Below are positions 21,601 through 35,717 of a stretch of 60,273 nucleotides of DNA, in pieces. The notes beneath the pieces were generated by a model. The model did no database searches. It was not told where the DNA came from and was given only the letters and a program-made list of their open reading frames with translations. Position numbers and translations under genes: made by a program. The stretch covers positions 1 to 60,273 of IMG/VR virus record IMGVR_UViG_2778261541_000006. The stretch is one strand, 5' to 3'. The DNA is from a virus (lineage: Duplodnaviria; Heunggongvirae; Uroviricota; Caudoviricetes). The stretch's first letter is position 1. Each line of letters begins with the position of its first letter.

Positions 21601-22400
21601 GCAATAAAGCCGAGATCAAGCAGGCAATGGACGCAGCAAACGCGCGCATCGCAGCAGAACGGGAAGCCAATCTGAATCATGCAGTCGCCGCACTGACTCA
21701 ATCGTGGGTAACAGCAATCAGGGAGGCCGCCACCACAGGGAAAATCACACCTGCAATTGCGGATGTCGTAAACGCCGGCTCTAAATTTATGGATGCCTAT
21801 CAAATGGATGCGGTGCAGTTGCCATCAGCCTATGGCCAACTCAGCTATCGCATGACCTACAACCTGGTATCAATGTTTTCCGACCTTGCCATCCTTGGGC
21901 TGGTGGATCTTAACGAGGTTACGCCGGAATTGCTCAGCATGCGCAAGAATCATGTGGAGATATTGCAGAGAATTAACACGGTTCTTGCCGGGCGCACCGA
22001 TGAAGAGAAACAGGCCGACGCTGATCGGATAAACCTGGCCCTTGGCAACATCACGGAGGAAGAAATTGCCGCCAGAAACGAGAAACAAGAAGAGTTATCA
22101 TCAATACAGGGTGATGCCACCAGCATAGCTCAGTCTCTTGGTCTGAATTATCGCGTATCCACCGCCGACCTGAAGATGATGTACGCACCGAAATTCGCCG
22201 CTGGCGAGGTATTTGGGCTTCAGGAAGCCTCAGGCATGAAAGGCGTTCTTTTCCGTGCGAAAGACGCAATCAAGGCGAAATTCGGCGCTCGCTGGCTGCC
22301 AGCGAAGGCGAAGAACAGCGATTTCCCGGGTAACTGGTGGATTATCGAGACAAAACACAACGTGGCGGACGTTCTGGCCGTCATCCAACAATACGCATAA
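15633..22400 (+). CDS. darB: DarB antirestriction protein (N6-adenine methyltransferase plus helicase domains)
   Basis: 2255-aa ORF, the size of P1 DarB; N-terminal MTase-like region (NVPFGG) and helicase motifs (GFGTGLGKTT, DEGHNYRN). Confidence 0.9.
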   Translation: MNKLSMWVFRCSSVSEILKYIRAITSHRAPIKYGVEKVEGKSYDRLRREANQKAIDLLNSLVDGATLTDEQRQILAGYTGEGGIGGSVSEYYTPKPIAEGVWEIMKLYGADVGNTLEPSAGTGVFNETKPVGTVMTATEISSVSGRINQLLHPEDSVQISPFEQLAVSTPNDSFDHVVGNVPFGGRDNTRNIDKPYAEETDMGSYFMLRMLDKIKPSGFMCVIVPPSIVSGSNMKRLRLRLSRKAEFLGAHRLPTGTFDANGTSTVVDVVLMRKHPAEMAEKIPLVDEGTLESANVLWPTFISGKWFEKDGRRFVHGTQEKGFQGRIEVRADGQIDNQALKAKLIHRFESRIDWSLLDMAEPSPTADVVDEGEMRLINGVWQKYAGGRWIEADAGKALKIDAASYGADSWEALQRNLTTTEGRLGMTFTQMANVRDKYTTSISDDMVQLVDWINSQPEKYRERLYRGAMIGRMLIEYQDMKAAGHSAEQIEQQRLSLVSRLQAEIDRFGNPGRGPIAKLSGSGARAWFAFRGAIKLDGTISDELTGKLVTHDSSASYDSTSYQDTLRYLYSDLTRDPIQLDDFRLAFTGELPASDEELLNLLASTPGIAVSPYGGIVPFARATSGDINEIVAPKQEFLATLPDGPVKNNVLNQLAAIEEKRIKTPAENIRFKLNSRWFDRSVILEFLQENGYPDLRYVQSVQLEGDEMVSDTYHGGDGLFVGHRYGVVQRKDKETGEIRYEWDRKSGENATGFPAQLEKYLNGARIGGKDSATANGYREQMALLEDQFNKWIKTHDRYDELVAKYNDVFNSNIPYEHSGDPLGLKGLSGKRQPFDYQNSEVRRLSEDGRGILGFGTGLGKTTTALALEAFNYENGRSTRTAYVVPKSVLENWYYEAKEFLSEEAFSNYLFVGLDVLMDGDQIRQVPVLNENGKPVLGTDGTPVMRDALKLADEATITARMNAIPHSNYRAVVFTKEQYARIPLRDDTVDEHAQDMLYDFVAAGRVASAMDSDSHRKEAARRRVLSEYSDTGTEKAEKYPYFEDMGFDSVIADEGHNYRNSYKNGREASQLAYLPTSAVAQSARDMAIKNAYLMKKNGGRGPVLLTATPVVNTPIDAYNMLSHVLPKEYWQKMGIYSPDDFVKFFGKTRLETVQKISGEVEEKMALVGFENLDALRGIFHRWTTLKTAEDVKDTVEIPELDEHQQDAPLTEEQLAAYEELRQQAEAAAKANNGVTTSVNEDGVIEHEKASPIFSIIRDMDRVCTDMDLYYRRITYRFLPEYADAVQQLADSLPKQATSEDDDSDDSITQQSQYSLIDKGEFIQLQVPEAFEQEVNKRLAKFGIDEQTVTHPVTPKYAKLIATLKEFFPEGKQIIFTDEKTQHQKLKRIICNALNLEPSKVGILNAQTVAEAGKTGKKLKAVKPPKELPDEPTDAQIAKYNEQMVLYDAYIAQQNEMSLGGLEKIAADFQEGRTPIIICNKKAEVGINLHRGTTDIHHLTLPWTPASIAQRNGRGARVGSNRASVRVHYYCGKGSFDEYRLKTLKRKAGWISDILRSDKSEMENADANDMIEMQMYTAKDDGERLAMMQVQMDKAKAAQRARQKEQATIDLQNYIKAQHAAGEDVEVLTAELERSKAELEKTSAEVAKFKQAVMAKAADNADWKARWGSVHHTDRTLLAQYRASLKSAIQRKANISQAISRYEKLLNRTQKAATDIKRLRPLVEDAINKGILDVDPDLVNHASEFLVIGDRSWRVGQYYDCAGDIVRIKSLDFDSQRADVEIIFTLRGTKSGNWDVKTLDKQVDVTPDEDAVMQKISGGVSIAGINDIISCDDFYRFQQRGMIKITDSYGVQTTESGYSIDFVGTYTDPLKHAVYPDRRDGALKSSIAKWVLGMMSEGNNRQIRSAETFLVELFGSNYGDVIASYGDTLSPEAIQEKIADAIAKMPEKTSQGATRNGDSELEVTNAIFGTHEFRASDYEITTAQFGTIGIYSNKAEIKQAMDAANARIAAEREANLNHAVAALTQSWVTAIREAATTGKITPAIADVVNAGSKFMDAYQMDAVQLPSAYGQLSYRMTYNLVSMFSDLAILGLVDLNEVTPELLSMRKNHVEILQRINTVLAGRTDEEKQADADRINLALGNITEEEIAARNEKQEELSSIQGDATSIAQSLGLNYRVSTADLKMMYAPKFAAGEVFGLQEASGMKGVLFRAKDAIKAKFGARWLPAKAKNSDFPGNWWIIETKHNVADVLAVIQQYA

Positions 22401-22433
22401 CAGGAGCGCCCGGTTCGCCGGGCGTCGCATAAT

Positions 22434-22874
22434 ATGGCCACACTATCTGATACAATAAAACCGAATAAAACATATCTTGAGGCGGTACTCCGTACAGCGT
22501 TGTTAGGAAAGACAGAAGACGAATACGTTGATTTCTTCCTGTCAGGGCTACGCGGGCTATTACTGAAAAATCCCCGCCTGTACCGCAGCTATGGTCCATA
22601 CTGGCCGGAAATTAAAAAATTATTACTGGAGCGCGGTTATGGTAATTTCGGTCGTCTCGTTGACCGTGACGTTCGCAAAATTTACCGTTATGACCGCCCG
22701 GCGCTGACGCTCATAGCCGCGACGCTCTACAGCCAGGAGCGTTTTGATAATGGTCAGATATACTCAGCCTGGCATTTACTGCCAGTGCCTGAAGAGGTTG
22801 ACGACCAGGACTATGAGTTTGAGTCTTACGATTTGGAAGTTGAAGCCTTGGCACAGGCTGGAGAGAAAACTTGA
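22434..22874 (+). CDS. ulx: Ulx
   Basis: 146-aa ORF immediately downstream of darB; size and position match P1 ulx. Confidence 0.55.
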   Translation: MATLSDTIKPNKTYLEAVLRTALLGKTEDEYVDFFLSGLRGLLLKNPRLYRSYGPYWPEIKKLLLERGYGNFGRLVDRDVRKIYRYDRPALTLIAATLYSQERFDNGQIYSAWHLLPVPEEVDDQDYEFESYDLEVEALAQAGEKT

Positions 22875-23119
22875 AAAAGCGATACTACACAGTAAAGCAT
22901 GGGACGCTACGAGCATTACAAGAGTTTGCTGACAAGCACAACGTTGAGGTGCGCAGGGAAGGGGGAAGTAAAGCTCTGCGCATGTACCGCCCGGACGGGA
23001 AATGGCGGACGGTCGTCGATTTCAAAACTAACAGTGTTCCCCAAGGTGTCCGCGACCGGGCATTCGAAGAATGGGAGCAGATCATCATAGATAACGCATT
23101 GCTTCTGAATGCTGATTAA
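22871..23119 (+). CDS. lxc: Lxc/Bof, C1 co-repressor
   Basis: 82-aa ORF overlapping ulx stop; P1 Bof/Lxc is 82 aa at this position. Confidence 0.5.
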   Translation: MKKRYYTVKHGTLRALQEFADKHNVEVRREGGSKALRMYRPDGKWRTVVDFKTNSVPQGVRDRAFEEWEQIIIDNALLLNAD

Positions 23120-23122
23120 GAA

Positions 23123-23152
23123 CTCTCCGGCCTAGGGAGATTAGGCCGGAGA
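23123..23152. terminator. bidirectional hairpin between lxc and the SIR2 gene
   Basis: Inverted repeat TCTCCGGCCTAG / TAGGCCGGAGA flanked by AT-rich sequence between convergent genes. Confidence 0.4.
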
Positions 23153-23160
23153 TAAATATA

Positions 23161-24465
23161 CTATATAAACTTAGATATAATATCGTGAATCTGTTGTAGC
23201 GGGATATCTTCCATCTCATTCTTAATAAGAGAGCGGTTAGATGCTGTCAGTGAAGGCCATTTTGTTTTCCAGGCTAGATATGCTCGCCATGAGCAGCCTG
23301 TTTCGTAAGGTTTATTCATATTAGTCATTGAGTGCTCAACCGCATGTATGTATTTTTTCTCAAAATTGGTTCCTTTTACTTCAAATAAACTACCGAAATA
23401 AATAAGCCATTTTGCCAAGTGTTCATACTGCTCCCATGCGCCAGGCTTTTTAGTAAGTTCTATTTTTTTATCTATTATATTACAAAAAACATTTAATACA
23501 TTTTCATTATTCCAGCTATATCCAGATGATGAAATGGAGGAAATGATATGATAAAAAGAATCCTCTAGCTTCAAGAACTCTATTTTATACTCTCTTCCGT
23601 TTTTTATTACCGATTTGATTGAGTGCCTCAATTTGTCTTTTATTTTTTTTGCTTCTGGAATTTTATCGTTAAGTTTTCTAAAGAAATCAGATACTTCTGT
23701 TTTATCTATAACCCTAACCCCATAGCAGGAAAAATAGTAATCTTTAATAGGTTGCAATAGTTCCCCTCGGGAAACAAGGAAAATATTGGAGGACATTACG
23801 TTGTCCCGTGAAAATACCTTATATTCATTTATAATAGCCTTTAGGTTCGCGTCACTTAGAGAATAGCCAAGGATAACAATAGTGTTTTCATGTAGAACTG
23901 TGCTTAGTTTATTAGAAAAGTAAGAATTACCATTTATAAATCTGAAATAATCCTCGCTAGTAACAACCATGTCTGATGGGGAGTCTATAGAACCGTGAAC
24001 ATGGTAGACTTTAACCTCACAATTATATTTTGGAATTGGCAGGCCGGGGGTGATTGTACACGTTCGATTCTCTCCAGCCAGCTTTTCTGCTAACTTGTCA
24101 TAATTTGTCGTAATTACTTTAAATGTGTTTTCTTTGAAAAAGTCTTGAATATATTCAATTGATGGATCAAGTTCGATTGAGGCTATGATTTTCTCAATCT
24201 CTTGGTAAATATTTTTCCCCGAAAGTATAAATTTTAGTGCAATAACCTGAGCAGCTTCTTCAAGGCTAAGGTCTTTTGCTTTTCCATCAGGAAATAATTC
24301 CTCTTTGAGTGAGTCACCATCCTTCAATAAACCGCACAGTTGCTCCAATAAAGATTGCCAACTTGGGGCTTTATCATCAGAAACAGCCTTTGAAAATCCA
24401 GTGCCTGTAAGAAAGCACAGCCTATGTGTAGCCGCTGCATAGGCAATTTCTATATACTCGCTCAT
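23161..24465 (-). CDS. SIR2-family protein (ThsA-like SIR2 domain) with uncharacterised C-terminal domain
   Basis: 434-aa ORF in a very AT-rich block; N-terminal half carries SIR2-type motifs in the same order as Thoeris ThsA (FLTGTGFS, TTNYDKL, HVHGS, ILGYSLSD); C-terminal 200 aa unrecognised. Confidence 0.7.
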   Translation of the reverse strand: MSEYIEIAYAAATHRLCFLTGTGFSKAVSDDKAPSWQSLLEQLCGLLKDGDSLKEELFPDGKAKDLSLEEAAQVIALKFILSGKNIYQEIEKIIASIELDPSIEYIQDFFKENTFKVITTNYDKLAEKLAGENRTCTITPGLPIPKYNCEVKVYHVHGSIDSPSDMVVTSEDYFRFINGNSYFSNKLSTVLHENTIVILGYSLSDANLKAIINEYKVFSRDNVMSSNIFLVSRGELLQPIKDYYFSCYGVRVIDKTEVSDFFRKLNDKIPEAKKIKDKLRHSIKSVIKNGREYKIEFLKLEDSFYHIISSISSSGYSWNNENVLNVFCNIIDKKIELTKKPGAWEQYEHLAKWLIYFGSLFEVKGTNFEKKYIHAVEHSMTNMNKPYETGCSWRAYLAWKTKWPSLTASNRSLIKNEMEDIPLQQIHDIISKFI

Positions 24466-24521
24466 TACTTACTCCATTTACTTATAGTTCTACGGAGAAG
24501 TATACCCTAATGCATTGACGT

Positions 24522-25163
24522 TTATAGATAATTTCCTTTTCCTGTTAATACTCCCTTAGGCACCTGTTTTTGTGCCAGCGTTTGGGTGCCGCGAATTATG
24601 TTAATCAGAGGGCTTAGTAACGATGGTTCCTGGCGTGCCTCAACTTCTCCAGCCATTGCACTGATGTAGTCGGCGCTGGCAACGTTGTTGTATTCCGTCG
24701 CAAAGCAACATAGTAACGTCAGAACATGCTCTGTCGTTATTTCGCTCCAGTTGATGTTGAAAAATTCATCGCCTTTTTTATCGTGTTCGGAATCGAAGAT
24801 GCTTTGGTGGAGGATGTATTTGCCGGATTCCTTGCGCGGTAACTTGATTGCTTTCTGGCGTTCCAGCTCCTTATAAATCTGCATTGCCTCAATTAGTACC
24901 GGCCTGCCGTTCATGAAGGGATCGCGCAACCTTACACGCTGGCCAACTCGACCAGTAATAAAGCTGTTTTCCTCTTCCACCAGCACGATAAAACCTTTTT
25001 CCTCTTTCTCACGCAATTCGCGCAGCAACTGGAGTTCCATATCGCGGCGGCGTTCAGGGTAGCTGGTCCGCTCAGCCATTATCAGCTCGTTGTTGATCCA
25101 TGCAGCAGTCATTGACGCCGGTTTGCCGACGCTCATCGAAACAACGCATATTTTCTTATCCAT
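24522..25163 (-). CDS. hypothetical protein
   Basis: 213-aa ORF from Met50 of the track ORF (24522..25310), preceded by a GGGGG RBS; higher GC than the SIR2 gene; no recognisable domain. Confidence 0.45.
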   Translation of the reverse strand: MDKKICVVSMSVGKPASMTAAWINNELIMAERTSYPERRRDMELQLLRELREKEEKGFIVLVEEENSFITGRVGQRVRLRDPFMNGRPVLIEAMQIYKELERQKAIKLPRKESGKYILHQSIFDSEHDKKGDEFFNINWSEITTEHVLTLLCCFATEYNNVASADYISAMAGEVEARQEPSLLSPLINIIRGTQTLAQKQVPKGVLTGKGNYL

Positions 25164-25423
25164 AGCGCCCCCTACAAAAAAGAAAAGCCACCAGCGGCGG
25201 CTTAGCAATACAACTGAAGGTAGCGCCCGGTACTCAGACTGTGCCGTCCATGGAATATTTGAAAAGGGATCCATCCGTACCGGGCGTGTGATGATTCTGA
25301 CTGAAGTCACTTGTCAGTTGTCAATTATTTATTATTAAAAATAATATATTTATTAGTGCATACAAATAAGGCACTAAGTGTGCACATTGCAACCTCAGAG
25401 AGGAAACATTCAACTAGATTGTT

Positions 25424-25457
25424 ATTGCTCTAATAAATTTGATTTATTAGAGCAAAT
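25424..25457. promoter_or_regulatory. C1 operator pair upstream of icd-ant module 1
   Basis: ATTGCTCTAATAAATTT followed head-to-head by an inverted near-copy (ATTTATTAGAGCAAAT); matches the asymmetric 17-bp P1 C1 operator consensus. Confidence 0.6.
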
Positions 25458-25619
25458 AAACTACTATTGGACGCCAGACTATTGATCTTCCTGTTGTTCA
25501 GGCTTATAGTTCCTACGTCGTAGCAAATTCTGCGACCGGGTTTAGCAGCCTGAATGTACATGCGGACAACCGCAGATTTCCGATATTGCGGTATTTTTAT
25601 GTCCGTAAAACCGCGTTAC

Positions 25620-25700
25620 GCCCGAATTATGGTGGGGCGTGATGGGGAGGCTTCGGCCTGCTGGTTTCATGTACGCCAGTCTGCTAACCCCGTCACGTCC
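25620..25700 (+). ncRNA. candidate c4-like antisense RNA
   Basis: Segment containing CATGTAC and CTGCTAA, complementary to two copies each of GTACATG and TTAGCAG upstream (25542-25561) and at the icd RBS (25710-25749); extent approximate. Confidence 0.35.
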
Positions 25701-25757
25701 TGCCACCCGTTTAGCAGCGGGTAGCAGGTTGTTAAACCTGTACATGAGGCCGTAACT

Positions 25758-25979
25758 ATGGTTAATGCCAATCCTTGCGCACGCCCTGAATTTATCTGGC
25801 GCTTTTACTCCTGCCAGAAACGTCACTATCACTTCGTTATCGCACCAACAGAAGATGAGGCACGTTCTCAGCTTCCGGATGCTCCCTGTATTTTCTCTGC
25901 CCGCTTTTCTACCGATTTGCGCAATTCTCTCAGTTACTGGTGCCTCCCTGTTAACGCTTCTGCTCAGGAGGGGCTATGA
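25758..25979 (+). CDS. Icd-like small protein, translationally coupled to ant
   Basis: 73-aa ORF overlapping the downstream antirepressor start by 4 nt, the arrangement of P1 icd-ant1. Confidence 0.5.
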   Translation: MVNANPCARPEFIWRFYSCQKRHYHFVIAPTEDEARSQLPDAPCIFSARFSTDLRNSLSYWCLPVNASAQEGL

Positions 25980-27088
25980 GAACGTCATTAGTCACCCGTG
26001 AAGAGATGATCGAGGCAATTGAACAGCACACTGCCTGTATCAGTACCAGGGATATACCAGGCGTTATTGCCAACTACTTCATGATCACCAAACAACTTTA
26101 CCGGAGAAAGGACAAGAACGCGGTTCACCGCATTCTTCTAACTGATATCCGTGAATACCTGCTCGAACAGGGTCGTCTTGATTATGCAACCGTAACCGCC
26201 GAAGCACGCAAGGAGGCACACAGAATGAAAGCAACTAACGTTAAATCAGAAAAAATTCATGCACCTTCAGTTCAGGAATCGGAGCTGGTGGTTGTTCAAA
26301 ATCAGCCGGATGAAATTCCCGTTCTGGAATGGCAGGGAGTACGTGTCGTAACAACCGAAACTCTTGCTAAGGGGTACGGAACCGATGAAGGCAATATTCG
26401 TAAAAATTTGTCTTGCAACTCCGATCGCTTTGAAGAAGGTAAACACTACTTTCTTTTAACTGGTTCAAAATTAAGAGAATTTAAGAACAGAGTTACTTTT
26501 AGTAACTCTGTTGGTAAGAACGCCAGAAACCTCACTCTCTGGACGGAACGCGGCGCAGCCCGCCACGCTAAAATGATCGAAACCGATCAGGCATGGGCAT
26601 TCTTTGAAAAACTGGAAGACAGCTACTTCCGGCAAAAAGAACAGCAACCGGTCGCAATCCCTCAGACGCTTCCCGAAGCTCTGCGCCTGGCTGCCGAGCT
26701 GGCTGAACAAAAGCAACTTCTGGAACAGAAAGCCCACCAGCTAAATCAGCAGCTGGTGGCCGCAGCCCCTAAGGTCGATTTTGCCGACCGGGTATCAGTG
26801 GCTAAGGGGATCCTGATTGGGAATTTTGCAAAGGTTGTTGGACTTAAGCAAAATGCGCTGTTTGCCTGGTTACGGGAGAACGGCATCCTGATTGCGTCCG
26901 GCGGACGTAAAAATGTACCGTTTCAGCAGTACATAAACGCCGGATATTTCACAGTGAAAGAAGTGGTGCTGGATGATGAAGATGGCTATCAGATACGGCT
27001 GACGCCTCAATTAACGGGTAAAGGCCAGCAGTGGTTGACGCGTAAACTGCTCGATGCTGGCTTGTTAAAACCGGTGGCGGCTGAATGA
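25976..27088 (+). CDS. phage antirepressor (ORF6N N-domain plus KilA-C/Ant C-domain), copy 1
   Basis: 370-aa ORF; central motif IPVLEWQGVRVVTTETLAKGYG and C-terminal region VSVAKGILIGNFAKVVGLKQNALFAWLRENGIL are characteristic of antirepressor families. Confidence 0.65.
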   Translation: MRTSLVTREEMIEAIEQHTACISTRDIPGVIANYFMITKQLYRRKDKNAVHRILLTDIREYLLEQGRLDYATVTAEARKEAHRMKATNVKSEKIHAPSVQESELVVVQNQPDEIPVLEWQGVRVVTTETLAKGYGTDEGNIRKNLSCNSDRFEEGKHYFLLTGSKLREFKNRVTFSNSVGKNARNLTLWTERGAARHAKMIETDQAWAFFEKLEDSYFRQKEQQPVAIPQTLPEALRLAAELAEQKQLLEQKAHQLNQQLVAAAPKVDFADRVSVAKGILIGNFAKVVGLKQNALFAWLRENGILIASGGRKNVPFQQYINAGYFTVKEVVLDDEDGYQIRLTPQLTGKGQQWLTRKLLDAGLLKPVAAE

Positions 27089-27092
27089 TTAA

Positions 27093-27115
27093 AAAAGGCG
27101 GCCTTTCGGCCGCCA
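27093..27115 (-). terminator. terminator for the cre-side transcript
   Basis: Hairpin GGCGGCC-TTTC-GGCCGCC preceded on the plus strand by an A run, i.e. followed by a T run on the minus strand. Confidence 0.4.
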
Positions 27116-27329
27116 ATGATGTCAAGGAGTTAAGTAATGGCTCGTCTTCGTAGTTGACAAAAACCGCGGCTCAATTATAGCAATAAATTAGAGCAATGGT
27201 AGATATTTTGTTTATCGCGAATCATATTTTTTCACTTCAGTACCAGTGTGCTATACTCCTTCTTGATTGATTGGATGCGGAATACAAACCCGCTCTTTTG
27301 TGCAGCCTGGCTCCTTGCCAGGCTTTTTT

Positions 27330-27641
27330 TTACTTCATCATGGAAGCTGTTAACGCTTTGGACCTTGCTGAACTGATTGAAAGGACATTGTTAACCTTAC
27401 CCAAGAGTTCGCCAAACTCAGACATCACTTTAGCAAAACCGCGCCGTGCTTCTTCCTCGGTGGCATTCATCACGAAATGTTCAGCACTACGCATACTTTT
27501 GACAGGGAACGCAACGGATATTGAGTCAATATCAGGCATCCTGTCGCTCAACTTTACAGTGACAATGACGGCTGGCGACTGAATATTAGTGCTTACAGAC
27601 AGCACTACATATTTTCCGTCGATGTTGAAATCCTTTCTCAT
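27330..27641 (-). CDS. hypothetical protein downstream of cre (cra-like position)
   Basis: 103-aa ORF co-directional with and just downstream of cre; competes with an overlapping plus-strand ORF (27271..27582); position-based call only. Confidence 0.3.
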   Translation of the reverse strand: MRKDFNIDGKYVVLSVSTNIQSPAVIVTVKLSDRMPDIDSISVAFPVKSMRSAEHFVMNATEEEARRGFAKVMSEFGELLGKVNNVLSISSARSKALTASMMK

Positions 27642-27691
27642 ATGTCACCATAAATATCAAAGAATCAGAGCAATCCTTTGCGCGTTAATGG

Positions 27692-28723
27692 CTAATCGCC
27701 ATCTTCCAGCAGGCGCACCATTGCCCCCGTTTCACTATCCAGGTTACGAATGTAGTTCATGACAATATTTACGTTGGTCCAGCCACCAGCTTGCATGATC
27801 TCCGGTATTGAAACTCCGGCGCGGGCCATATCTCGCGCGGCACCGACACGGGCACTGTGTCCAGACCAGGCCAGGTATCTCTGGCCAGAGTCATCCTTAG
27901 CGCCGTAAATCAATCGATGAGTTGCTTCAAAAATCCCTTCCAGGGCGCGAGTTGATAGCTGGCTGGTGGCAGATGGCGCGGCAACACCATTTTTTCTGAC
28001 ACGGCAAAACAAGTAGTTATTCGGATCATCAGCCACACCAGAGACAGAAATCCATCGCTCGACCAGTTTAGTTACCCCCAGGCTAAGTGCCTTCTCTACA
28101 CCTGCGGTGCTAACCAGCGTTTTCGTTCTGCCAATATGGATTAACATTCTCCCACCGTCAGTACGTGAGATATCTTTAACCCTGATCCTGGCAATTTCGG
28201 CTATACGTAACAGGGTGTTATAAGCAATCCCCAGAAATGCCAGATTACGTATATCCTGGCAGCGATCGCTATTTTCCATGAGTGAACGAACCTGGTCGAA
28301 ATCAGTGCGTTCGAACGCCAGTGCCTGTTTTGCACGTTCACCGGCATCAACGTTTTCTTTTCGGATCCGTCGCATGACCAGTGAAACAGCATTACTGTCA
28401 CTTGGTCGTGGCAGCCCGGACCGACGATGAAGCATGTTTAGCTGGCCCAAATGTTGCTGGATAGTTTTTACTGCCAGACCGCGCGCCTGAAGATATAGAA
28501 GATAATCGCGAACATCTTCAGGTTCTGCGGGAAACCATTTCCGGTTATTCAACTTGCACCATGCCGCCCACGACCGGCAAACGGACAGAAGCATTTTCCA
28601 GGTATGCTCAGAAAACGCCTGGCGATCCCTGAACATGTCCATCAGGTTCTTGCGAACCTCATCACTCGTTGCATCGACCGGTAATGCAGGCAAATTTTGG
28701 TGTACGGTCAGTAAATTGGACAT
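27692..28723 (-). CDS. cre: Cre tyrosine site-specific recombinase
   Basis: 343-aa translation (MSNLLTVHQNLPALPVDATSDEVRKNLMDMFRDRQAFSEHTWK ... MVRLLEDGD) matches P1 Cre as I recall it. Confidence 0.97.
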   Translation of the reverse strand: MSNLLTVHQNLPALPVDATSDEVRKNLMDMFRDRQAFSEHTWKMLLSVCRSWAAWCKLNNRKWFPAEPEDVRDYLLYLQARGLAVKTIQQHLGQLNMLHRRSGLPRPSDSNAVSLVMRRIRKENVDAGERAKQALAFERTDFDQVRSLMENSDRCQDIRNLAFLGIAYNTLLRIAEIARIRVKDISRTDGGRMLIHIGRTKTLVSTAGVEKALSLGVTKLVERWISVSGVADDPNNYLFCRVRKNGVAAPSATSQLSTRALEGIFEATHRLIYGAKDDSGQRYLAWSGHSARVGAARDMARAGVSIPEIMQAGGWTNVNIVMNYIRNLDSETGAMVRLLEDGD

Positions 28724-29141
28724 TTAACACTCAGATAATGGTTTTAAGTAAAGTGTACAGGATTGGCTCTGCCTTTACCTGTTTATGGTTCTCGTCATAG
28801 AAACGCCAGCGACCGCGCGTGCGTTCTATTTTCTCTTCACCGCGCGATAATGACAGTTGGCAACTATCACGATCAAACCATTTTGCCCGCCAGTAACCAC
28901 GGTTTTTCTCAAGCTCAAGATGAGTGGACACTTTAGCAGCTGAATATCCCAGTTTTCACCTCTGATTGATTGGTGGTGCTAAGTGCGCTACGCGAAATCT
29001 GGAGCACTAACACTGCCAACATTTCGCAGATTTTACGTAGCGCAACCTTGATCAAATGATCAAGTGATCACTATTTGACCTGATAAGGTATTGAACTGTA
29101 TGGATTTACAGGTAAATTAATCATGTTCAATAACCCTTAAG

Positions 29142-29175
29142 ATAACTTCGTATAATGTATGCTATACGAAGTTAT
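29142..29175. other. loxP: loxP recombination site
   Basis: Exact 34-bp ATAACTTCGTATA-ATGTATGC-TATACGAAGTTAT, upstream of cre. Confidence 0.97.
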
Positions 29176-29220
29176 CAGGTCCGAAGAGGAGTTTACGTCC
29201 AGCTGCGCACAAAAATCAAG

Positions 29221-29318
29221 AATTATTAGAGCAATAATTTTTGAGAGAAAAATCCCACTCCACCAGCCAAAAACTGGATTGTTTTTCATAGTTGTTTGAC
29301 AATTGCTCTAATAAATTA
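29221..29318. promoter_or_regulatory. C1 operators in the coi-c1 control region
   Basis: AATTATTAGAGCAAT (29221-29235, reverse orientation) and ATTGCTCTAATAAATTA (29302-29318) between loxP and coi. Confidence 0.6.
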
Positions 29319-29556
29319 TAGTTTTGCCGCCGTTTCGTAATACGACTTTGGATTCACTATTTAATGTGTCTTCAGCGTTGTAGAGCGGCTCAGAAGGAAA
29401 TGAGCAAACAGGGAAACCTTATACAACGGCATTACAGCTATGCATTGCTCATCTTACACACAGCGCAATGTTGTTAGATTACCCCAGCATGGATCATGGG
29501 TGAAACAGTAGGTCAGAGCTTCAGGCTCTGTGTTGTCAATACAGTGAGGCATAATT

Positions 29557-29766
29557 ATGGCTTTCATTCAACCAACCATCGACGACGTTAGACATTGCTC
29601 TAACGCTTTATCTGTAGACCCTGCCGAAACCGACGCTGCCCGCGCCATTGCTGAACACTACTCAAAGATATCCAATCAGGAGTACCGCATCACCCAAGAC
29701 GACCTGGATGACCTCACTGACACAATCGAATATCTCATGGCAACTAACCAGTTAGACTCACAATAA
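29557..29766 (+). CDS. coi: Coi, C1 inactivator
   Basis: 69-aa ORF immediately upstream of c1 on the same strand; size and position match P1 Coi. Confidence 0.85.
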   Translation: MAFIQPTIDDVRHCSNALSVDPAETDAARAIAEHYSKISNQEYRITQDDLDDLTDTIEYLMATNQLDSQ

Positions 29767-29876
29767 ATGCACTAATAAATCTATTATTTTTGTTTGATCC
29801 CTCTATAATATAGGTCAGTAATGACCGGTTTTCTCAGCCGGGCGTTATTGACCATGTCAATTCTGGAGGAGGATCA

Positions 29877-30728
29877 ATGATAAATTATGTCTACGGCGAA
29901 CAACTGTACCAGGAGTTCGTCAGCTTCAGGGATCTCTTTCTAAAAAAAGCTGTTGCACGCGCCCAACACGTTGATGCCGCCAGCGACGGTCGTCCTGTAC
30001 GCCCGGTTGTCGTTCTACCGTTCAAAGAAACAGACAGCATTCAGGCTGAAATTGATAAATGGACTTTAATGGCGCGGGAACTGGAACAGTACCCAGACCT
30101 CAATATCCCAAAGACTATTTTATATCCTGTGCCTAACATCCTTCGCGGTGTGCGTAAGGTTACGACTTATCAGACAGAAGCTGTGAACAGCGTCAACATG
30201 ACCGCTGGCCGCATTATTCATCTGATTGATAAGGACATTCGCATCCAAAAAAGCGCGGGGATCAATGAGCACAGTGCGAAATACATAGAGAACCTGGAAG
30301 CAACAAAAGAGCTAATGAAGCAGTACCCAGAGGATGAAAAATTCCGTATGCGCGTACACGGCTTTAGCGAAACAATGCTGCGCGTCCACTACATTTCCAG
30401 TAGCCCTAACTACAATGATGGTAAATCAGTTAGTTACCATGTGCCACTGTGTGGCGTGTTTATCTGCGATGAAACTCTCCGTGATGGAATTATCATCAAC
30501 GGTGAATTCGAAAAAGCAAAATTTAGCCTTTATGACTCCATAGAACCGATCATCTGCGACCGCTGGCCGCAAGCAAAAATATATCGCCTGGCAGATATTG
30601 AAAATGTAAAAAAACAAATTGCCATCACTCGCGAAGAGAAAAAGGTTAAGTCAGCCGCATCAGTTACGCGCAGCCGTAAAACCAAGAAGGGGCAGCCAGT
30701 AAACGACAACCCCGAAAGCGCGCAATAA
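29877..30728 (+). CDS. c1: C1 repressor of lysis
   Basis: 283-aa translation beginning MINYVYGEQLYQEFVSFRDLFLKKAVARAQ, matching P1 C1 as I recall it. Confidence 0.95.
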   Translation: MINYVYGEQLYQEFVSFRDLFLKKAVARAQHVDAASDGRPVRPVVVLPFKETDSIQAEIDKWTLMARELEQYPDLNIPKTILYPVPNILRGVRKVTTYQTEAVNSVNMTAGRIIHLIDKDIRIQKSAGINEHSAKYIENLEATKELMKQYPEDEKFRMRVHGFSETMLRVHYISSSPNYNDGKSVSYHVPLCGVFICDETLRDGIIINGEFEKAKFSLYDSIEPIICDRWPQAKIYRLADIENVKKQIAITREEKKVKSAASVTRSRKTKKGQPVNDNPESAQ

Positions 30729-30760
30729 ATTATGCCCGGCATCAACCGGGCATTCTTCCA

Positions 30761-31855
30761 TTATTCAGCCGCCACCGGTTTTAACAAGCCAGCATCGAGC
30801 AGTTTACGCGTCAACCACTGCTGGCCTTTACCCGTTAATTGAGGCGTCAACCGTATCTGGTAGCCATCTTCATCATCCAGCACCACTTCTTTCACCGTGA
30901 AATACCCCGCGTTGATGTACTGCTGGAACGGCACATTTTTACGTCCACCGGACGCTATCAGGATGCCGTTCTCCCGTAACCAGACAAACAGCGCGTTTTG
31001 CTTAAGTCCAACAACCTTTGCAAAATTCCCAATCAGGATCCCTTTAGCTACTGATACCCGGTCGGCAAAATCGACCTTAGGAGCGGCGGCCACCAGCTGC
31101 TGATTTAGCTGGTGGGCTTTCTGTTCCAGAAGCTGCTTTTGTTCAGCCAGTTCGGCAGCCAGGCGTAGGGCTTCTGGTAATGTTTGGGGGATTGTGATCG
31201 GTTGCTGTTCTTTTTGTCGGAAGTAGCTGTCTTCCAGTTTTTCAAAGAATGCCCATGCTTCATTTGTGTCCACGATCTTAGACATGCGTGCAGCACCGCG
31301 TTCGGCCCAGAGAATTACCTGACTTGTATATTTGCTAACCAAGTGACTAATAGTCACTAGCCTTTTAAATTCCTTTAACTTTGAACCGGTTAAGAGATAG
31401 TAATGCTTACCTTCTTCAAAGCGATCGGAGTTGCGAGACAAATTTTTACGAATATTGGCTTCATCGGTACCATACCCTCTAGCAAGAGTCTCGGTTGTTA
31501 CGACACGTACTCCCTGCCATTCCAGAACGGGAATTTCATCCAGCTGACTTTGAACAACCACCAGCCCGGATTCCTGAATTTCTGATTTAACGTTAGTTGC
31601 TTTCATTCTGTGTGCCTCCTTGCGTGCTTCGGCGGTTACGGTTGCATAATCAAGACGACCCTGTTCGAGCAGGTATTCACGGATATCAGTTAGAAGAATG
31701 CGGTGAACCGCGTTCTTGTCCTTTCTCCGGTAAAGTTGTTTGGTGATCATGAAGTAGTTGGCAATAACGCCTGGTATATCCCTGGTACTGATACAGGCAG
31801 TGTGCTGTTCAATTGCCTCGATCATCTCTTCACGGGTGACTAATGACGTTCTCAT
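30761..31855 (-). CDS. phage antirepressor (ORF6N plus KilA-C), copy 2
   Basis: 364-aa ORF; N-terminal about 88 aa and C-terminal about 185 aa identical or nearly so to copy 1, central segment diverged. Confidence 0.65.
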   Translation of the reverse strand: MRTSLVTREEMIEAIEQHTACISTRDIPGVIANYFMITKQLYRRKDKNAVHRILLTDIREYLLEQGRLDYATVTAEARKEAHRMKATNVKSEIQESGLVVVQSQLDEIPVLEWQGVRVVTTETLARGYGTDEANIRKNLSRNSDRFEEGKHYYLLTGSKLKEFKRLVTISHLVSKYTSQVILWAERGAARMSKIVDTNEAWAFFEKLEDSYFRQKEQQPITIPQTLPEALRLAAELAEQKQLLEQKAHQLNQQLVAAAPKVDFADRVSVAKGILIGNFAKVVGLKQNALFVWLRENGILIASGGRKNVPFQQYINAGYFTVKEVVLDDEDGYQIRLTPQLTGKGQQWLTRKLLDAGLLKPVAAE

Positions 31856-32073
31856 AGTCCCTCCTGAGCAGAAGCGTTAACAGGGAGGCACCAGTAACTG
31901 AGAGAATTGCGTGAATCAGTGGAAAAACGGGCAGAGAAAATACATGGGGCGTCAGGAAGCTGAGTGCGGGCCTCATCTTCTGTTGGTGCAATAACGAAGT
32001 GATAGTGACGTTTTTGGCAGGAGTAAAAGCGCCAGATAAATTCAGGATGAGTTGGGGTAGGGATAGTAGCCAT
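31852..32073 (-). CDS. Icd-like small protein, copy 2
   Basis: 73-aa ORF (MATIPTPTHPEFIWRFYSCQKRHYHF...) with AAGGAGG RBS, overlapping the copy-2 antirepressor start by 4 nt; N-terminus differs from copy 1. Confidence 0.5.
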   Translation of the reverse strand: MATIPTPTHPEFIWRFYSCQKRHYHFVIAPTEDEARTQLPDAPCIFSARFSTDSRNSLSYWCLPVNASAQEGL

Positions 32074-32393
32074 ATTGGCAGCCTCCTTAGACGTTGGTAT
32101 GTAACCACCGCAGAAGAGACCAATCTTGCTGGCGGTGGACTGTACGGAGTTGGCCTTACTGGCGTCCAAGGTAACCAGCCTACCCGAAGGTAGCCCCATA
32201 CAGCCCACCATTGTAGATGGTGTGCGTGTACGCCGATACAAAAAAAGACGCGAGCGGCGTCTGTATCGCCTTAGACTTAAGCGGGAGGCCAATCCCGGCA
32301 CCCGTTTTAATGAGGTGCCTGATAAGCATAAACCGAAAATGCCTCAAGGCGCAAGAGGTCAGGTTCAATGTAACATCGGTAGCTAAAAAACAC

Positions 32394-32410
32394 AATTTAT
32401 TAGAGCAAAT
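32394..32410. promoter_or_regulatory. C1 operator upstream of icd-ant module 2
   Basis: AATTTATTAGAGCAAAT immediately beyond the pacB stop, at the head of the minus-strand module. Confidence 0.55.
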
Positions 32411-32412
32411 AT

Positions 32413-33897
32413 TCATTCATTAAGCCATGCCAGAGCTTCATCAACCTGCGCTTCGTCTTCGACGCTAAGCACTTCGTCCTGGGGAACATAATCCGCCAGC
32501 ATAGCGAAACAATATGTATCCCAATGGTCTGGTGAGTGCAGATTGAGTTTTTTCTTCATATCCTCCTTACTCATCACCTTCCATTGACCTGCGGAGTTAA
32601 TACCTACAGGTATTTTAGACGCTTCCTCAATGGTTGCATTACCCTTATCCAGTCTCATACGACCAGATTTTACGGCCTCTGCGGCTTGAACGTTGGCATA
32701 AGCACGTTTATCAAAGTACAGGCTCTTATCTTCACGGCTATGCATCTTTTTACCCCAGCGTATACGCTGTACGGTAATACCATAATACTCGTACATCAGA
32801 TCCGCCGTTGCTTTACCCAGCCCATCGCCGTCTATCGCTATGGTGATATTTGGGAATCGCTCAGGATTACATTCTGCGAAAATTTTGGCGGCAAGCTGCG
32901 TTTCTGTAACGTCTGTGTATTCCAGCATTCGATAGTTGATTACACGGCGTTTATTTCGCTGGCCGGACACCATCATGATATTGATAACGGACTTATCCCG
33001 TCCCGTACCACCAGCAACGTCCACACATGCAAGCCAGCCCCATCCTTTGGCAATCTTGACTTTCCGCCGCGTTGCACGTTCAACCTCATCACGTCCAAGA
33101 AGGAAGCCATCCTGTGATTTAGGGAATAGGCCGCGCACCTTAATCATGTACATAGGGTTATCACGCCCGCCGTACTCCGCCAGCTTCATTTTGATAAATG
33201 CTGGCGTTACCAGCGGTGATTCCTCACTGTTAAGCGTGATCGCCGTATAAACGCCATCAGGGTTACCAGGACGCTTGGCCAGTTTATGGTGTGTATCGTA
33301 GAAATAGCCGCTTGGGCGTGTAGGCTGTGACAGTAATAAGATGCGGTTATCCTGTCCGGTAAGAGCACCGGTGATGATACCGAAAGCTCTATCACTGACA
33401 CCGGAGGCTTCATCGATAATATACAGAAGATGATCTGCGTGTTCACCGGCGAGAGCTTCTTCACTTCCCAGACGAAAGCCCTTCGGTACTACAGTCCATA
33501 CACCTTTACCTGTAACCTCATAGAAAGCGGTTTCTGTCAGAACAAAATAATCAGCAAGCCATGGGAAACGGCTGGTGGCAGTAGCCCAGTTTATCTTGAT
33601 GTACTTGAATATACCGGTCATTACCTGCTGAATTTTGTTCGCAACGATAATGGCGCGGGCACCGGGATACATGATTATGAACAACATGATCATGATAGAA
33701 GTCATGTCTGATTTCCCGGTACCGTGACCAGACGAAACAGATGTCTTGCTACCCTGTTCCTGCACAGACTCAATAATCAGATCCTGCTGCCAGGTAGGTG
33801 TTTTGCCGAACAAAACATCAGCGGCAGCAATCCAGTCATAACGATATAGCGCCACCAGCTCGCGCCAACGTGGATCCGTTACGCAACTTCTGGCCAT
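32413..33897 (-). CDS. pacB: terminase large subunit PacB
   Basis: 494-aa ORF overlapping pacA stop by 1 nt; ATPase-like motifs ([19 protein letters not shown]). Confidence 0.9.
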
Positions 33898-35090
33898 TAA
33901 TCATCATCCCCGTATAGCTTGCGGGTAACTTCTTCGTCTTCCTCCTCGTCTTCGTCCAGGTCTTGTTCCAGCCATGGGTCGTTTGATACACCTTCAGTAT
34001 CAACATCTCCATAACCGCCTGTATCAACGATATCGGCGATTTCTTCCCTACGCTGCTCAATCCACAATGCGGCATCGGCGCGGCGGTTGGCGGCCCGTTC
34101 TCGCGCAACTTTGTCCAGATCTTCAAGAGAAGGGCCACCGACGGCTGTTTGCCTTTCCTCATCATCGGTATTGGTCTTAGGAGCACGCAGATCGGCTTTG
34201 ATTTGCTCCAGCATCAGGGGCGGCACTTTCCCGCCATGCGCCTCGATGAATTCAGCTGCTTCCAGCACTGACCAGTTATTTTCACGCTTTCGTTCGTATG
34301 CCAGCTTAACAATGCCAGCTTGCCCCATAGACAAAGCGTGCTTTTCCGCCTCCCGGCTTTCTTTTCGATAGTTATTCCGGATGCTGTAAATGGTGTTGAT
34401 CAGACTGCTTATCTGCGCGGAACAGCTGTTTAGCATGCTCGCGATACGGTATTCAGGCGGAGTACCTTCATCATCGTCTTTTTGCTGATCGCGCATTTCC
34501 TGCACCAAGCGAATACACGTATCCCTGGCGTTCTCCAGCATAAGGAGATGAGAAAGAGACTTTTCCAGAAGAGTGGTTTCCAGAACATCGGCCCCGGACC
34601 GACGCAACATAGCGCGCGCGGCCTTCCGCGCTTCAACGTTATCTATCAGGTAATCGCCAGCTTCGAATTCAAAGCGTTCACCATCATCATCCAGGGTGTC
34701 GCGTTCCAGGCGATCACGTAAGGTACGGTGGGCGCGGGTGATCACGTCATGATCATCAGAGCGATCATTTATGCGCTTATTTTGGCGCTTAGCGTTCTCG
34801 ACTGCGGCACTGACAACAGCATTAACTCTTTGTTTTTCAGCCATTTCAGTCGCAATGTGATCACCCGCACGTTGATCATTAGCGTGATCAATGATCATGC
34901 TTTTTAGTGGTTTCCTGACAGGCTTATTTGGCTTACGACTGTCCGCTGTTCCGGTGTCTTCTTTGAATGCACGGAGATAACGACGTGCGGTGTTTGGGTT
35001 GAGATTAAACTCGGCGGCATATTGTGCGATGGTGTAACCACCCTCTCGCGCCAGGCGAGCAAAATTCTTCTTGTGATCGTCCCAGGTCAC
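33897..35090 (-). CDS. pacA: terminase small subunit PacA
   Basis: 397-aa ORF with N-terminal HTH-like region and acidic C-terminus; contains the pac site in its 5' part. Confidence 0.9.
34741..34905 (-). other. pac: pac packaging site with TGATCA/G hexamer clusters
   Basis: Two clusters of GATC-containing hexamers (TGATCA, TGATCAT...) about 100 bp apart inside pacA; matches the P1 pac architecture. Confidence 0.7.
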
Positions 35091-35176
35091 TTATGCTTCC
35101 TTTCGTATAAAACTCTTTTTGACGCGAGGGTAACGAAAGTCACATGTCAAAAGGCCCGGAACGGGCAAGCAATCAA

Positions 35177-35629
35177 TCAGATACGTGCGGATGTGGCATT
35201 ACCGTAATGACGGTGCTGACGGACCACCTTATTGAAAAGTTGACGCGCCATCACCCAAGGCTGGTGCTCCCGGCGTTCCTTTTCGTCCTGCGTCATATAG
35301 AGTTCGTTCTGGAGTTTTTCATCAAACCGGCGCGGAGCGCGGCTGCGGCGAAAGAATTCAGGATTCAGAGAGTGGATCTGAAATCTACGTGGGCGTGTAC
35401 TGTCATCAATCAAAACAGACGAATACTTAGACACAGCGATAGCCTTTAAGCGCAGATAAACATCGCGCTTATCGACATCCAGATGCGGGTATTCCTTTTC
35501 AAGAATTGCTGCGAGTTCTTTCGCTGATAGAAGAGATTTAGTGCGGATCATGTAATCCGCAATCTCGTACGATGTTATTCGTGAGTGATTTATTTCCATG
35601 AAGTGGCGTCCCTGCCAGTTAAGTAACAT
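35177..35629 (-). CDS. lpa: Lpa late promoter activator (gp10)
   Basis: 150-aa ORF directly upstream of pacA; size and position match P1 Lpa. Confidence 0.8.
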   Translation of the reverse strand: MLLNWQGRHFMEINHSRITSYEIADYMIRTKSLLSAKELAAILEKEYPHLDVDKRDVYLRLKAIAVSKYSSVLIDDSTRPRRFQIHSLNPEFFRRSRAPRRFDEKLQNELYMTQDEKERREHQPWVMARQLFNKVVRQHRHYGNATSARI

Positions 35630-35716: not shown

Positions 35717-35717
35717 T

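Follow-up and report, generated by a model that had tools for sequence, protein, structure and literature searches.

Two ectopic immI-type cassettes with predicted orthogonal C4 specificities flank the immC region of a P1-like phage-plasmid

The DNA analysed here, positions 1 to 60,273 of the IMG/VR virus record IMGVR_UViG_2778261541_000006 (60,273 nucleotides; hereafter the window), contains two icd-ant gene modules, inverted around the c8-cre-loxP-coi-c1 segment of a P1-like (Punavirus) phage-plasmid. Our analysis indicates that both modules are complete and probably functional immI-type immunity cassettes at ectopic positions, which carry two orthogonal specificities as judged from their predicted C4 antisense RNAs. 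The heteroimmunity of phages P1 and P7 via C4 antisense RNA is a textbook case, and to our knowledge heteroimmunity of this type has been known from two alleles at one locus only. In P1, the Ant1/Ant2 complex inactivates the repressor C1, and the C4 RNA acts in trans to keep Ant from being made (PMC8546580; PMC12197685), with C4 specificity underlying P1/P7 heteroimmunity (PMC12197685; PMC6906374). According to the P1 annotation, immI is present there as a single copy between simA and kilA; an earlier model-made description of the window (the first-pass annotation) had likewise given it as a single copy located elsewhere. Neither module of the window lies between sim and kilA-repL.

Results

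Architecture of the two modules

At the level of sequence, each module is a complete immI-type operon consisting of a C1 operator, a leader with the sites a1 and b1, a C4 RNA, the target sites a2 and b2, icd, ant1 and an internal ant2 start (Table 1). Module 1 matches the annotated immI of P1 part by part (Oc4, P1c4/P51b, a1, b1, c4, a2, b2, icd, ant1, ant2), with all parts present at the spacing that they have in P1. Its C4 RNA is predicted to fold with -45.4 kcal/mol (z = -5.2) into two hairpins within a long stem and is complementary to its partners at 7/7 positions in a, 8/8 in b2 and 7/8 in b1, while the encoded Icd shows 81% identity to P1 Icd. At the head of the module, the two opposed operators deviate from the 17-bp consensus at no position (25424-25440) and at three positions (25440-25456), respectively, and together make up a palindrome whose arms measure 14 bp; no perfect palindrome in the window is longer. 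In the closest relative (L002, about 9790-9810) a single operator is found at the module 1 head, ATTGCTCTAATGAATTT, beyond which the sequence is unrelated. Otherwise similar plasmids may thus differ in how strongly C1 controls this cassette.

Module 2 possesses a single operator, which is also present in RCS47, and its C4 RNA (fold z = -3.5) likewise shows two hairpins within a long stem. Pairing with the targets involves duplexes of about 8 bp in b and 7 bp in a, with one G-U pair each. Only module 2 has the make-up of an IsrK-type unit, that is an isrK RNA with an intrinsic-terminator-like hairpin followed by a small ORF that is AUGA-coupled to an antirepressor, the leader of module 1 being of the c4-a1b1 type. 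In line with this assignment, the first nine codons of the module 2 Icd (MATIPTPTH) are of the IsrK-lineage type.

Both Ant proteins match PHROG 63 ('anti-repressor Ant') over their full length (E = 1e-134 and 1e-128) and contain the Pfam domain ANT (KilA-C; E = 2e-32 and 8e-31) in addition to ORF6N. PADLOC returned weak, uninformative ORF6N-domain matches only, to candidate systems (PDC-S05). The first-pass annotation had proposed ORF6N/KilA-C antirepressors, each overlapped by 4 nt by a 73-aa ORF (ant ORFs of 364-370 aa) and each headed by a C1 operator. These assignments were borne out by the domain matches, by the ATGA found in both modules and by operator matches with 0-3 mismatches at 25424, 25440 and 32393. 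It had overlooked the C4 RNA genes, the leader elements and c8 as the ORF between module 1 and cre.

Upstream of the module 2 icd and in frame with it, a long ORF (31852-32301, minus strand) gives a match to Pfam Phage_ASH (PF10554, E = 3e-9). PGAP names the ORF upstream of this icd a partial 'ash family protein', with similar cases at L084 1604-2389 and L002 16428-16745. The residues matching Phage_ASH are the translated isrK/C4 RNA region, and in the Stx phage P13374 the annotation of a Rha-family CDS takes the 5' end of the C4 RNA as its start. It may therefore be translated structured RNA, not a protein domain, that the Phage_ASH family models in its C-terminal half.

Table 1. Coordinates of the two cassettes and of neighbouring features in the window
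Feature	Position	Strand	Basis or remark
Module 1 head: two overlapping opposed C1 operators, ATTGCTCTAATAAATTT (+), TTTGCTCTAATAAATCA (-)	25424-25456	+	Consensus search; P1 Oc4/Op51 at equivalent position
Module 1 promoter-like TTGATC-17-TATAGT, equivalent to P1 P1c4 (P51b)	25482-25510	+	Promoter scan; TATAGT aligns with annotated P1c4 -10
Module 1 leader	25504-25598	+	Rfam c4-a1b1 (RF03163), 53.2 bits vs gathering score 46.7
Module 1 a1, UUAGCAG	25542-25548	+	
Module 1 b1, GUACAUGC	25556-25563	+	
Module 1 leader hairpin and U-run	25569-25598	+	
Module 1 C4 antisense RNA, 77 nt	25631-25707 (Rfam match 25625-25710)	+	Rfam C4 (RF01695), 71.7 bits vs gathering score 45
Module 1 b' loop, UCAUGUAC	25667-25674	+	
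Module 1 a', CUGCUAA	25681-25687	+	
Module 1 a2	25711-25717	+	
Module 1 b2, GUACAUGA	25740-25747	+	Runs into icd Shine-Dalgarno GAGG
Module 1 icd, 73 codons	25758-25979	+	phrog_1426, E 5e-46; stop overlaps ant1 start (ATGA)
Module 1 ant1, 370 aa	25976-27088	+	Pfam ORF6N + ANT; PHROG 63; aligned to P1/P7 Ant1
Module 1 internal in-frame ant2 start (M84)	26225	+	AAGGAGG upstream; aligns with annotated P1 ant2 start
Copy 1 ant hairpin, 12-bp perfect stem, 3-nt loop	26486-26512	+	Codons 171-179, ORF6N domain
GC-rich terminator-like hairpin directly after ant1 stop	27097-27114		
Module 2 head: single C1 operator, TTTGCTCTAATAAATTG	32393-32409	-	2 mismatches to consensus; 4 nt past pacB stop
Module 2 IsrK-type leader	32241-32318	-	Rfam isrK (RF01394), 60.8 bits vs 50
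Module 2 a1, UUGGCCU	32286-32292	-	
Module 2 b1, GUCUAAGG	32269-32276	-	
Module 2 leader intrinsic-terminator-like hairpin and U-run	32246-32262	-	Terminator scan
Module 2 C4 antisense RNA, 76 nt	32134-32209 (Rfam match 32128-32215)	-	Rfam C4, 75.9 bits vs gathering score 45
Module 2 b' (hairpin-2 loop), CCUUGGAC	32164-32171	-	
Module 2 a' (3' single strand), AGGCCAA	32150-32156	-	
Module 2 a2, UUGGUCU	32117-32123	-	
Module 2 b2, GUCUAAGG	32085-32092	-	Inside icd Shine-Dalgarno AAGGAGG
Module 2 icd, 73 codons	31852-32073	-	phrog_1426 (Icd family); ATGA overlap with ant1
Module 2 ant1, 364 aa	30761-31855	-	Pfam ORF6N + ANT; PHROG 63
Module 2 internal ant2 start (M84)	31606	-	AAGGAGG upstream
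Copy 2 ant hairpin, AGUGACU-AUU-AGUCACU (17-bp palindrome)	31342-31358	-	
Hairpin common to convergent 3' ends of c1 and module 2 ant	30732-30753		
Omat-like operator	about 25345-25362		
Oref (P1 Op2a) operator	27181-27197	-	
Intervening immC segment	27330-30728		
c8	27330-27641	-	
cre	27692-28723	-	
loxP	29142-29175		
coi	29557-29766	+	
c1	29877-30728	+	
pacB	32413-33897		

Orthogonal C4-target specificities

The annotated sites are a = UUGACAG and b = GUUAGUGA in P1, and a = UUAGCAG and b = GAUUGUGA in P7. Module 1 combines the P7-type a site with a new b allele, GUACAUGA, the matching changes being found at b1, in the C4 loop (b') and at b2. For the cognate duplex of b' loop and target we calculated -10.2 kcal/mol in module 1 and -11.3 kcal/mol in module 2; cognate leaders ranged from -10.0 to -11.3 kcal/mol, compared to -1.6 to -5.4 kcal/mol for all non-cognate combinations. 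The b' duplexes of P1 with P7, which are experimentally heteroimmune and served as benchmark, gave -4.7 and -5.0 kcal/mol. By this experimentally validated P1/P7 yardstick, module 1, module 2, P1 and P7 are predicted to be four separate b specificities. As the C4/target sets of the two modules are predicted to be mutually orthogonal, and also orthogonal to those of P1 and P7, each cassette would represent a separate immunity specificity. We also considered, and rejected, the possibility that module 2 communicates through its RNA with Stx phages or D6: the C4 stems are near-identical, but the a'/b' alleles differ in the examples compared, for which no cross-repression is predicted.

Mosaic structure and gene conversion

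A repeat search resolves the inverted modules into two pairs of arms, 25785-26252/31579-32046 (468 nt, 97% identity) and 26271-27099/30750-31578 (829 nt, 89% identity), so that the inverted arrangement described in the first-pass annotation is real; the units measure roughly 1.7 kb each. Comparing the modules with each other and with P1/P7 immI, as had been proposed there, shows that the homology between them begins abruptly at icd codon 10 (PEFIW...). The 350 nt upstream, comprising operator, promoter, leader, C4 and targets, barely align. The control region of module 1 is 86-91% identical to canonical P1/P7 immI. That of module 2 shows 99% identity to the pacB-adjacent unit in vB_EcoM-673R5, about 80% to RCS47 and JL22, about 79% to Stx/lambdoid phages, where it precedes Rha-family regulators, and 69% to the second c4-icd unit of D6. 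Judging from these alignments, the modules are not a simple duplication: the two control regions are of different lineages, and only icd from codon 10 and ant are shared. The 'duplicated, mosaic' immunity system under C1 control that had been proposed thus stands as immI-type and mosaic, not as a duplication of whole units, and its control by C1 is predicted from the operator matches.

The Ant proteins are built of three parts, an Ant1-specific N-terminus (residues 1-83), a swappable centre and a highly conserved KilA-C C-terminus. A P1-type centre without Pfam match is found in P1, P7, the canonical cassette and module 1 of the relative, whereas both copies in the window and most cassettes between pacB and c1 contain an ORF6N centre in several diverged alleles. 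Copy 1 and copy 2 are identical in amino-acid sequence over residues 1-91, whereas residues 92-225 show 35 differences, a 6-aa indel among them, and residues 226-370 show 3. The previously described pattern of near-identical ends accordingly holds, with a divergent stretch that spans residues 92-225 and not a central stretch of about 90 residues.

Nucleotides 1-270 of ant are 100% identical between the two copies of the window, compared to at most 95.9% identity to any other module (75 compared in all), the identical run extending over 279 nt (25974-26252). Since this private allele is common to two paralogues in one genome, recent intragenomic gene conversion appears to be the best explanation. 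A similar tendency is seen in two other genomes, with 99.3% and 97.0% identity within the genome versus 93-94% elsewhere.

A conserved hairpin within the ant coding sequence

The first-pass annotation had noted a 17-bp palindrome in copy 2 that was said to be absent from copy 1. The palindrome exists, at 31342-31358 and not at 31337-31353, but copy 1 contains an even longer stem at the homologous codons. This copy 1 stem is one of three palindromes of that size in the 60-kb window, the others being the module 1 double operator and loxP, and no stems of at least 12 bp occurred in shuffled windows. The copy 2 palindrome was rejected as a stand-alone signal, as a shuffled window contains about 7 stems of at least 8 bp by chance (34 in the real one); it gains its meaning from the homologous position and from covariation.

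When the seven different ORF6N alleles are compared, pairing in the stem is seen to be preserved by compensatory substitutions. In one such pair, position 3 of a Val codon faces position 1 of a codon for Asn, Tyr or His (GUU...AAC, GUA...UAC, GUG...CAC). In the stem alignment 88% of the cells are paired, compared to 30-43% in slid controls, and 7/12 stem pairs have changed on both sides. The covariation score amounts to 0.52 versus 0.22 in shuffles, none of the 500 shuffles reaching 0.52, and the RNA fold z values are -4.3 for copy 1 and -2.3 for copy 2. Because G-U pairs fall on the coding strand, we favour a putative mRNA hairpin over a protein-binding DNA palindrome.

Occurrence, stacking and allele diversity

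The closest complete relative is plasmid unnamed3 of E. coli ETEC1701 (pETEC1701; 97.5% identity, 96% coverage of the 14-kb query 22000-36000). It holds modules 1 and 2 at the matching places plus a canonical cassette next to kilA and repL, and these three cassettes have three different (a, b) pairs. The modules of the window are thus very likely additional to a canonical sim-c4-icd-ant-kilA cassette lying outside the window. P1-like sequence, scored as a match to 22000-36000, is present in 929 of 5,426 complete E. coli genomes. The whole two-module layout is found in 48 of them, the pacB-module 2 junction in 180 and the mat-module 1 junction in 41. PLSDB adds 46 colinear plasmids, including some from E. 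albertii and Shigella.

With the two Ant types as queries we retrieved 157 related IMG/VR loci, and, after the C4 patterns had been widened to take in IsrK-type alleles, 147 cassettes were resolved on 121 contigs. They fall into 17 (b', a') classes. All 10 classes of the first set (77 modules) keep the complementarity of a1, b1, a2 and b2, as do RCS47, D6 and the Stx phage. In the P1 lineage the b' cores are CACUAAC, CACAAUC, CAUGUAC, CGUAAGU, CAUUCGU and, rarely, CACAAGU, combined with the a' alleles CUGUCAA or CUGCUAA; the IsrK lineage shows the b' cores ACCUUGGAC, CCCUUUUGC and CCCUUUGAC and the a' alleles AAGGCCAA, AGUUCCAA and AGUCUCAA. The sample thus contains at least six b and at least two a alleles of the P1-type lineage and at least three b and at least three a alleles in IsrK-type cassettes of P1-like elements, and the Stx phage contributes one further b and one further a allele.

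The cassettes occupy four sites: the canonical site, the ref site, the mat-res/mod boundary ('RD-1' of Venturini et al.) and the gap between pacB and c1. Up to four cassettes occur per contig, a maximum reached by two contigs. These are the IMG/VR contigs 2713896909_000009 (L027/L045/L165) and 2703718869_000013 (L024/L080/L093), each of about 97 kb, in which three immI-type cassettes lie at the ref site, between pacB and c1 and at the canonical site and the fourth elsewhere, with all (a', b') pairs differing. On 2703718869_000013, two cassettes with a common b' allele differ solely in a'. In the loci L014, L009, L011 and L038 the cassette is found on the other side of mat, at the mat-res/mod boundary, and about 560 nt separate c8 from mat, an interval that might be ref. 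Several cassettes of this type carry b' CGUAAGU, which is also found at the canonical site; the occurrence of this allele at two sites suggests that cassettes move between sites.

Genomic setting

P1, P7, SJ46, RCS47 and related phages match the region with 94-97% identity (BLAST, 24500-33000), and 832 PLSDB plasmids match the same interval. Read against P1's own annotation as a ruler, the gene order is darB, a SIR2-like gene, mat (-), an Omat-like operator, module 1 (+), Oref, c8, cre, loxP, coi, c1, module 2 (-), pacB and pacA. Module 1 lies between Omat and Oref and hence in the place of ref, in an orientation opposite to that of P1 ref, and module 2 lies where c1 and pacB converge, between their 3' ends. 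Both modules are located at known variable spots flanking the immC region. Both would be transcribed towards immC and, speculatively, read-through from module 2 across the weak hairpin at 30732-30753 could run antisense to c1.

The SIR2-like gene occupies the res-mod position of P1. It encodes a 434-aa SIR2_2-domain protein (23161-24465, minus strand) where P1 has the EcoPI res-mod genes and matches candidate and known defence models of PADLOC, namely PDC-S25 (E = 2e-24), ThsA (E = 8e-18) and LmuA; we regard it as a likely anti-phage defence gene, acquired by exchange at the RD-1 hot spot. The genes of a complete type I restriction-modification system follow downstream of the phd-doc position (37741-43746, plus strand; HsdM 520 aa, HsdS 402 aa, HsdR 1058 aa), and in the relative pETEC1701 hsdS is interrupted by an IS3 element. 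Three tRNA genes on the minus strand (57302-57374, 59182-59254 and 59260-59332) lie at the position of the P1 tRNA cluster. Searching the whole window with the 17-bp consensus yields 15 C1-operator matches with at most three mismatches, compared to 0.3 expected by chance. Further pairs of C1 operators are an overlapping inverted pair at 59990-60017, two operators (46089-46154) that flank an 11-bp palindrome (46102-46129) and two in the lox-coi interval (29219-29318); these pairs are consistent with the dispersed operator network of P1.

Discussion

In the mechanism that we propose by homology with immI of P1/P7 and, for module 2, with IsrK of Gifsy-1, a promoter of its own would drive transcription of each cassette. 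This promoter would be preceded by one or two C1 operators, which match the consensus and through which C1 would repress the cassette. The transcript would contain the a1/b1 leader, a terminator-like hairpin and then the 76-77-nt C4 RNA, as indicated by structure and family membership. The b' loop of C4 is complementary to b2 over the icd Shine-Dalgarno sequence and the single-stranded a' to a2. Following the work on P1 and IsrK, this pairing would block icd translation and, because icd and ant1 are coupled via ATGA, also Ant synthesis. Without C4, or with C4 titrated away (the a1/b1 leader might do so, as in IsrK), production of Icd and Ant1/Ant2 would go ahead and Ant would inactivate C1. 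A resident plasmid with several cassettes would then be able to silence incoming relatives carrying any of those types, while an incoming phage with several cassettes would escape unless the resident matches all of them. Under this mechanism, cassette stacking and the diversification of a/b alleles would reflect competition among P1-like elements.

Several points weigh against two functional cassettes with separate specificities. C1 binding, C4 processing, repression of the targets by C4 and the interaction of Ant with C1 are all inferred. The promoter scan revealed no strong sigma-70 promoter for module 2, and about 30 nt separate its operator from the best -35 candidate further downstream, which renders C1 control of this module uncertain. 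The a-site specificity also appears less clean than that of the b site, as a P7-type a' strand finds a second, near-complementary UAGCAG-like site in all P1-type leaders; since this site confounds the a-site duplex energies, we relied on the b loop and on explicit site matching. The canonical third cassette, although very likely present in this genome, lies beyond the window coordinates and is deduced from the relative. Finally, none of the 35 pairs of co-resident cassettes shares its (a, b) pair, yet a null model matched by site would yield only about one such case (P = 0.36 by contig, 0.18 by genome), because different sites hold different allele pools. The pattern is thus consistent with selection for orthogonality without demonstrating it, and we do not claim such selection.

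As the centre of both Ants is ORF6N and not of the P1 type, their target could also differ from C1. The extra cassettes might mainly serve cross-talk or offence, the ORF6N Ants inactivating or sensing the repressors of other prophages or phage-plasmids (D6-like, lambdoid). Such a role would agree with the centre being the swappable, fast-diverging part of Ant (ORF6N in the window copies, P1-type in P1, P7 and module 1 of the relative) and with a module 2 control region that is common with D6 and with Stx/lambdoid phages, there preceding Rha-family regulators; some pacB-c1 cassettes even carry exactly the D6 C4 allele, and Salmonella offers a precedent for antirepressors acting in trans across prophages (PMC3121763). 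We nevertheless consider it unlikely, given that the Ant1 N-terminal region and the KilA-C domain, both common with P1 Ant, are conserved, that C1 operators head both cassettes and that no direct RNA cross-talk is predicted for module 2, the C4 of which has neither the a' nor the b' of those alleles of Stx phage and D6 that were examined. Far less probable still is a second copy that arose as an assembly artefact, or modules that are decaying, non-functional duplicates. Repeats of about 1 kb can mis-join in short-read drafts, and one related contig (L021, see below) shows an odd join at the cassette. However, dozens of complete assemblies, made independently and originating from several species and countries, show the two modules in the same colinear layout, and the recurrence of this layout in complete genomes and PLSDB rules out the artefact that the first-pass annotation had named as a possible refutation. 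Moreover, the copies differ in control regions and centres and thus cannot be a collapsed or duplicated read pile, all ORFs are intact, both the coupling and the start of ant2 are conserved, and changes at the RNA sites are compensated in all three places.

The first-pass annotation had further suggested that the inverted repeats could invert the cre-lox-c1 segment. If the ant repeats acted as an invertible switch, recombination would flip c8-cre-loxP-coi-c1 and generate two functional genome isomers. The prerequisites are in place: the inverted repeats are homologous over 1.3 kb (89-100% identity) with about 3.6 kb between them, and the copies exchange sequence, as seen from the private 279-nt identical tract. 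We searched for a synthetic recombinant junction, in which mat, the module 1 c4, icd and the 5' part of ant were joined to the 3' part of the copy 2 ant and c1. At a coverage of at least 80% it was found in none of the 5,426 complete E. coli genomes, although the native layout is present in about 48; the best matches cover 74% and end exactly at the homology boundary (the start of module 2 homology). Recombinant flanks (mat...c1 or pacB...c8) were likewise absent from all 96 ant copies of the first set of related loci, and no dedicated recombinase or crossover site for inversion was found. Consensus assemblies would hide minority inversion isomers within a culture. Taken together, a switch of this kind is very improbable; the exchange of sequence with neither recombinant junctions nor flanks rather indicates that the repeats recombine without crossover products becoming fixed. 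The contig L021 (IMGVR_UViG_2548876964_000015) was considered as a simple inversion and rejected, as BLAST shows a larger rearrangement in a short-read draft contig. Here, a cassette with a module 1-type C4 is preceded by sequence of the ban region (window 54662-58953) and followed, at its 3' end, by c1...c8, then an interval of 560 nt that might be ref, and mat. L021 may represent a large rearrangement via cassette homology or a short-read mis-assembly across the repeat.

Beyond the reading of two functional immI-type cassettes, we tentatively put forward a broader one, to which we give distinctly less credence: one to four stacked immI cassettes of two RNA lineages may form a combinatorial 'immunity barcode' that decides exclusion and entry, with the ant hairpin as a hitherto unrecognised regulatory element of the mRNA. 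In the cassettes compared, every allele change appears to be compensated at three sites. If the barcode exists, gene conversion between cassettes and the swapping of Ant centres would keep reshuffling the system, and cassette number and allele identity would jointly set which relatives are excluded and which lysogens can be broken. Our data indicate that natural P1-like phage-plasmids often carry several switches with orthogonal RNA specificities and swappable antirepressor domains. P1-like elements are present in roughly one in six complete E. coli genomes, and relatives of these phage-plasmids are known to carry resistance genes. Should the cassettes work as predicted, they would provide rules for the coexistence, exclusion and mutual induction of phage-plasmids, with a bearing on the spread of plasmid-borne traits, as well as a natural set of orthogonal antisense RNA/target pairs.

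Comparison with known systems

PGAP already names the genes of both modules 'Icd-like' and 'antirepressor KilAC domain' proteins, and extra ant genes have been mentioned in passing: Venturini et al. (2019) report ant between pacB and c1 in RCS47 and pTZ20_1P and icd-ant homologues in the RD-1 of pSvP1 (PMC6906374). The ant of RCS47, pTZ20_1P, JL22 and vB_EcoM-673R5 corresponds to the insertion of module 2 at the matching site, though RCS47 has a C4 with a b'/a' allele different from that of module 2, and pSvP1 has its icd-ant1/2 homologues in the res-mod region. These reports and annotations list an 'ant' gene only, without C4 RNA, targets, allele differences or co-occurring cassettes. Within the literature library searched, we came across no functional work on additional immI cassettes or on the diversity of C4 alleles, and no account of the C4 genes of extra cassettes, their allele series or orthogonality, stacking to four, gene conversion or the ant hairpin.

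Module 2 resembles the IsrK-orf45-AnrP unit of Salmonella Gifsy-1 in having an isrK leader, a terminator-like hairpin, a structured RNA and a small ORF with AUGA overlap to an antirepressor. In Gifsy-1, the short leader RNA IsrK ends at an intrinsic terminator and read-through enters the small ORF AUGA-coupled to the antirepressor, the short IsrK RNA activating antirepressor translation in trans (PMC4825925); in Salmonella, trans-acting antirepressors coordinate several prophages (PMC3121763). With the Stx-phage unit upstream of Rha-family genes, the small ORF of module 2 shares its first codons (MATIP...). Unlike these units, the small ORF of module 2 is a P1-type icd and its effector a P1-type Ant1/Ant2, a P1 C1 operator takes the place of a strong promoter context and the a'/b' alleles differ. 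Phage D6 and D6-like plasmids, for which a second c4-icd region has been noted (PMC6799933), resemble the window in carrying an additional IsrK-lineage C4-icd-antirepressor unit beside a P1-type unit. The effector of D6 is, however, of the Rha/HTH type and not an Ant with KilA-C, and genomic context and C4 allele differ.

The closest known system is immI of P1 and P7 itself. With it the cassettes share the order and spacing of operator, promoter, a1, b1, 77-nt C4, a2, b2, icd and ant1/ant2, the placement of b2 over the icd Shine-Dalgarno sequence, the 73-codon icd, the ATGA coupling and the KilA-C C-terminus. They differ from it in their ectopic positions (the ref site and the pacB-c1 gap instead of sim-kilA), in the presence of more than one cassette per genome and in the ORF6N Ant centre, to which the centre of P1 is unrelated; module 1 furthermore has a new b allele and a bivalent palindromic operator, and module 2 a control region of another lineage. 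The cassettes are therefore a real and common variant of a well-known system and not a new kind of system.

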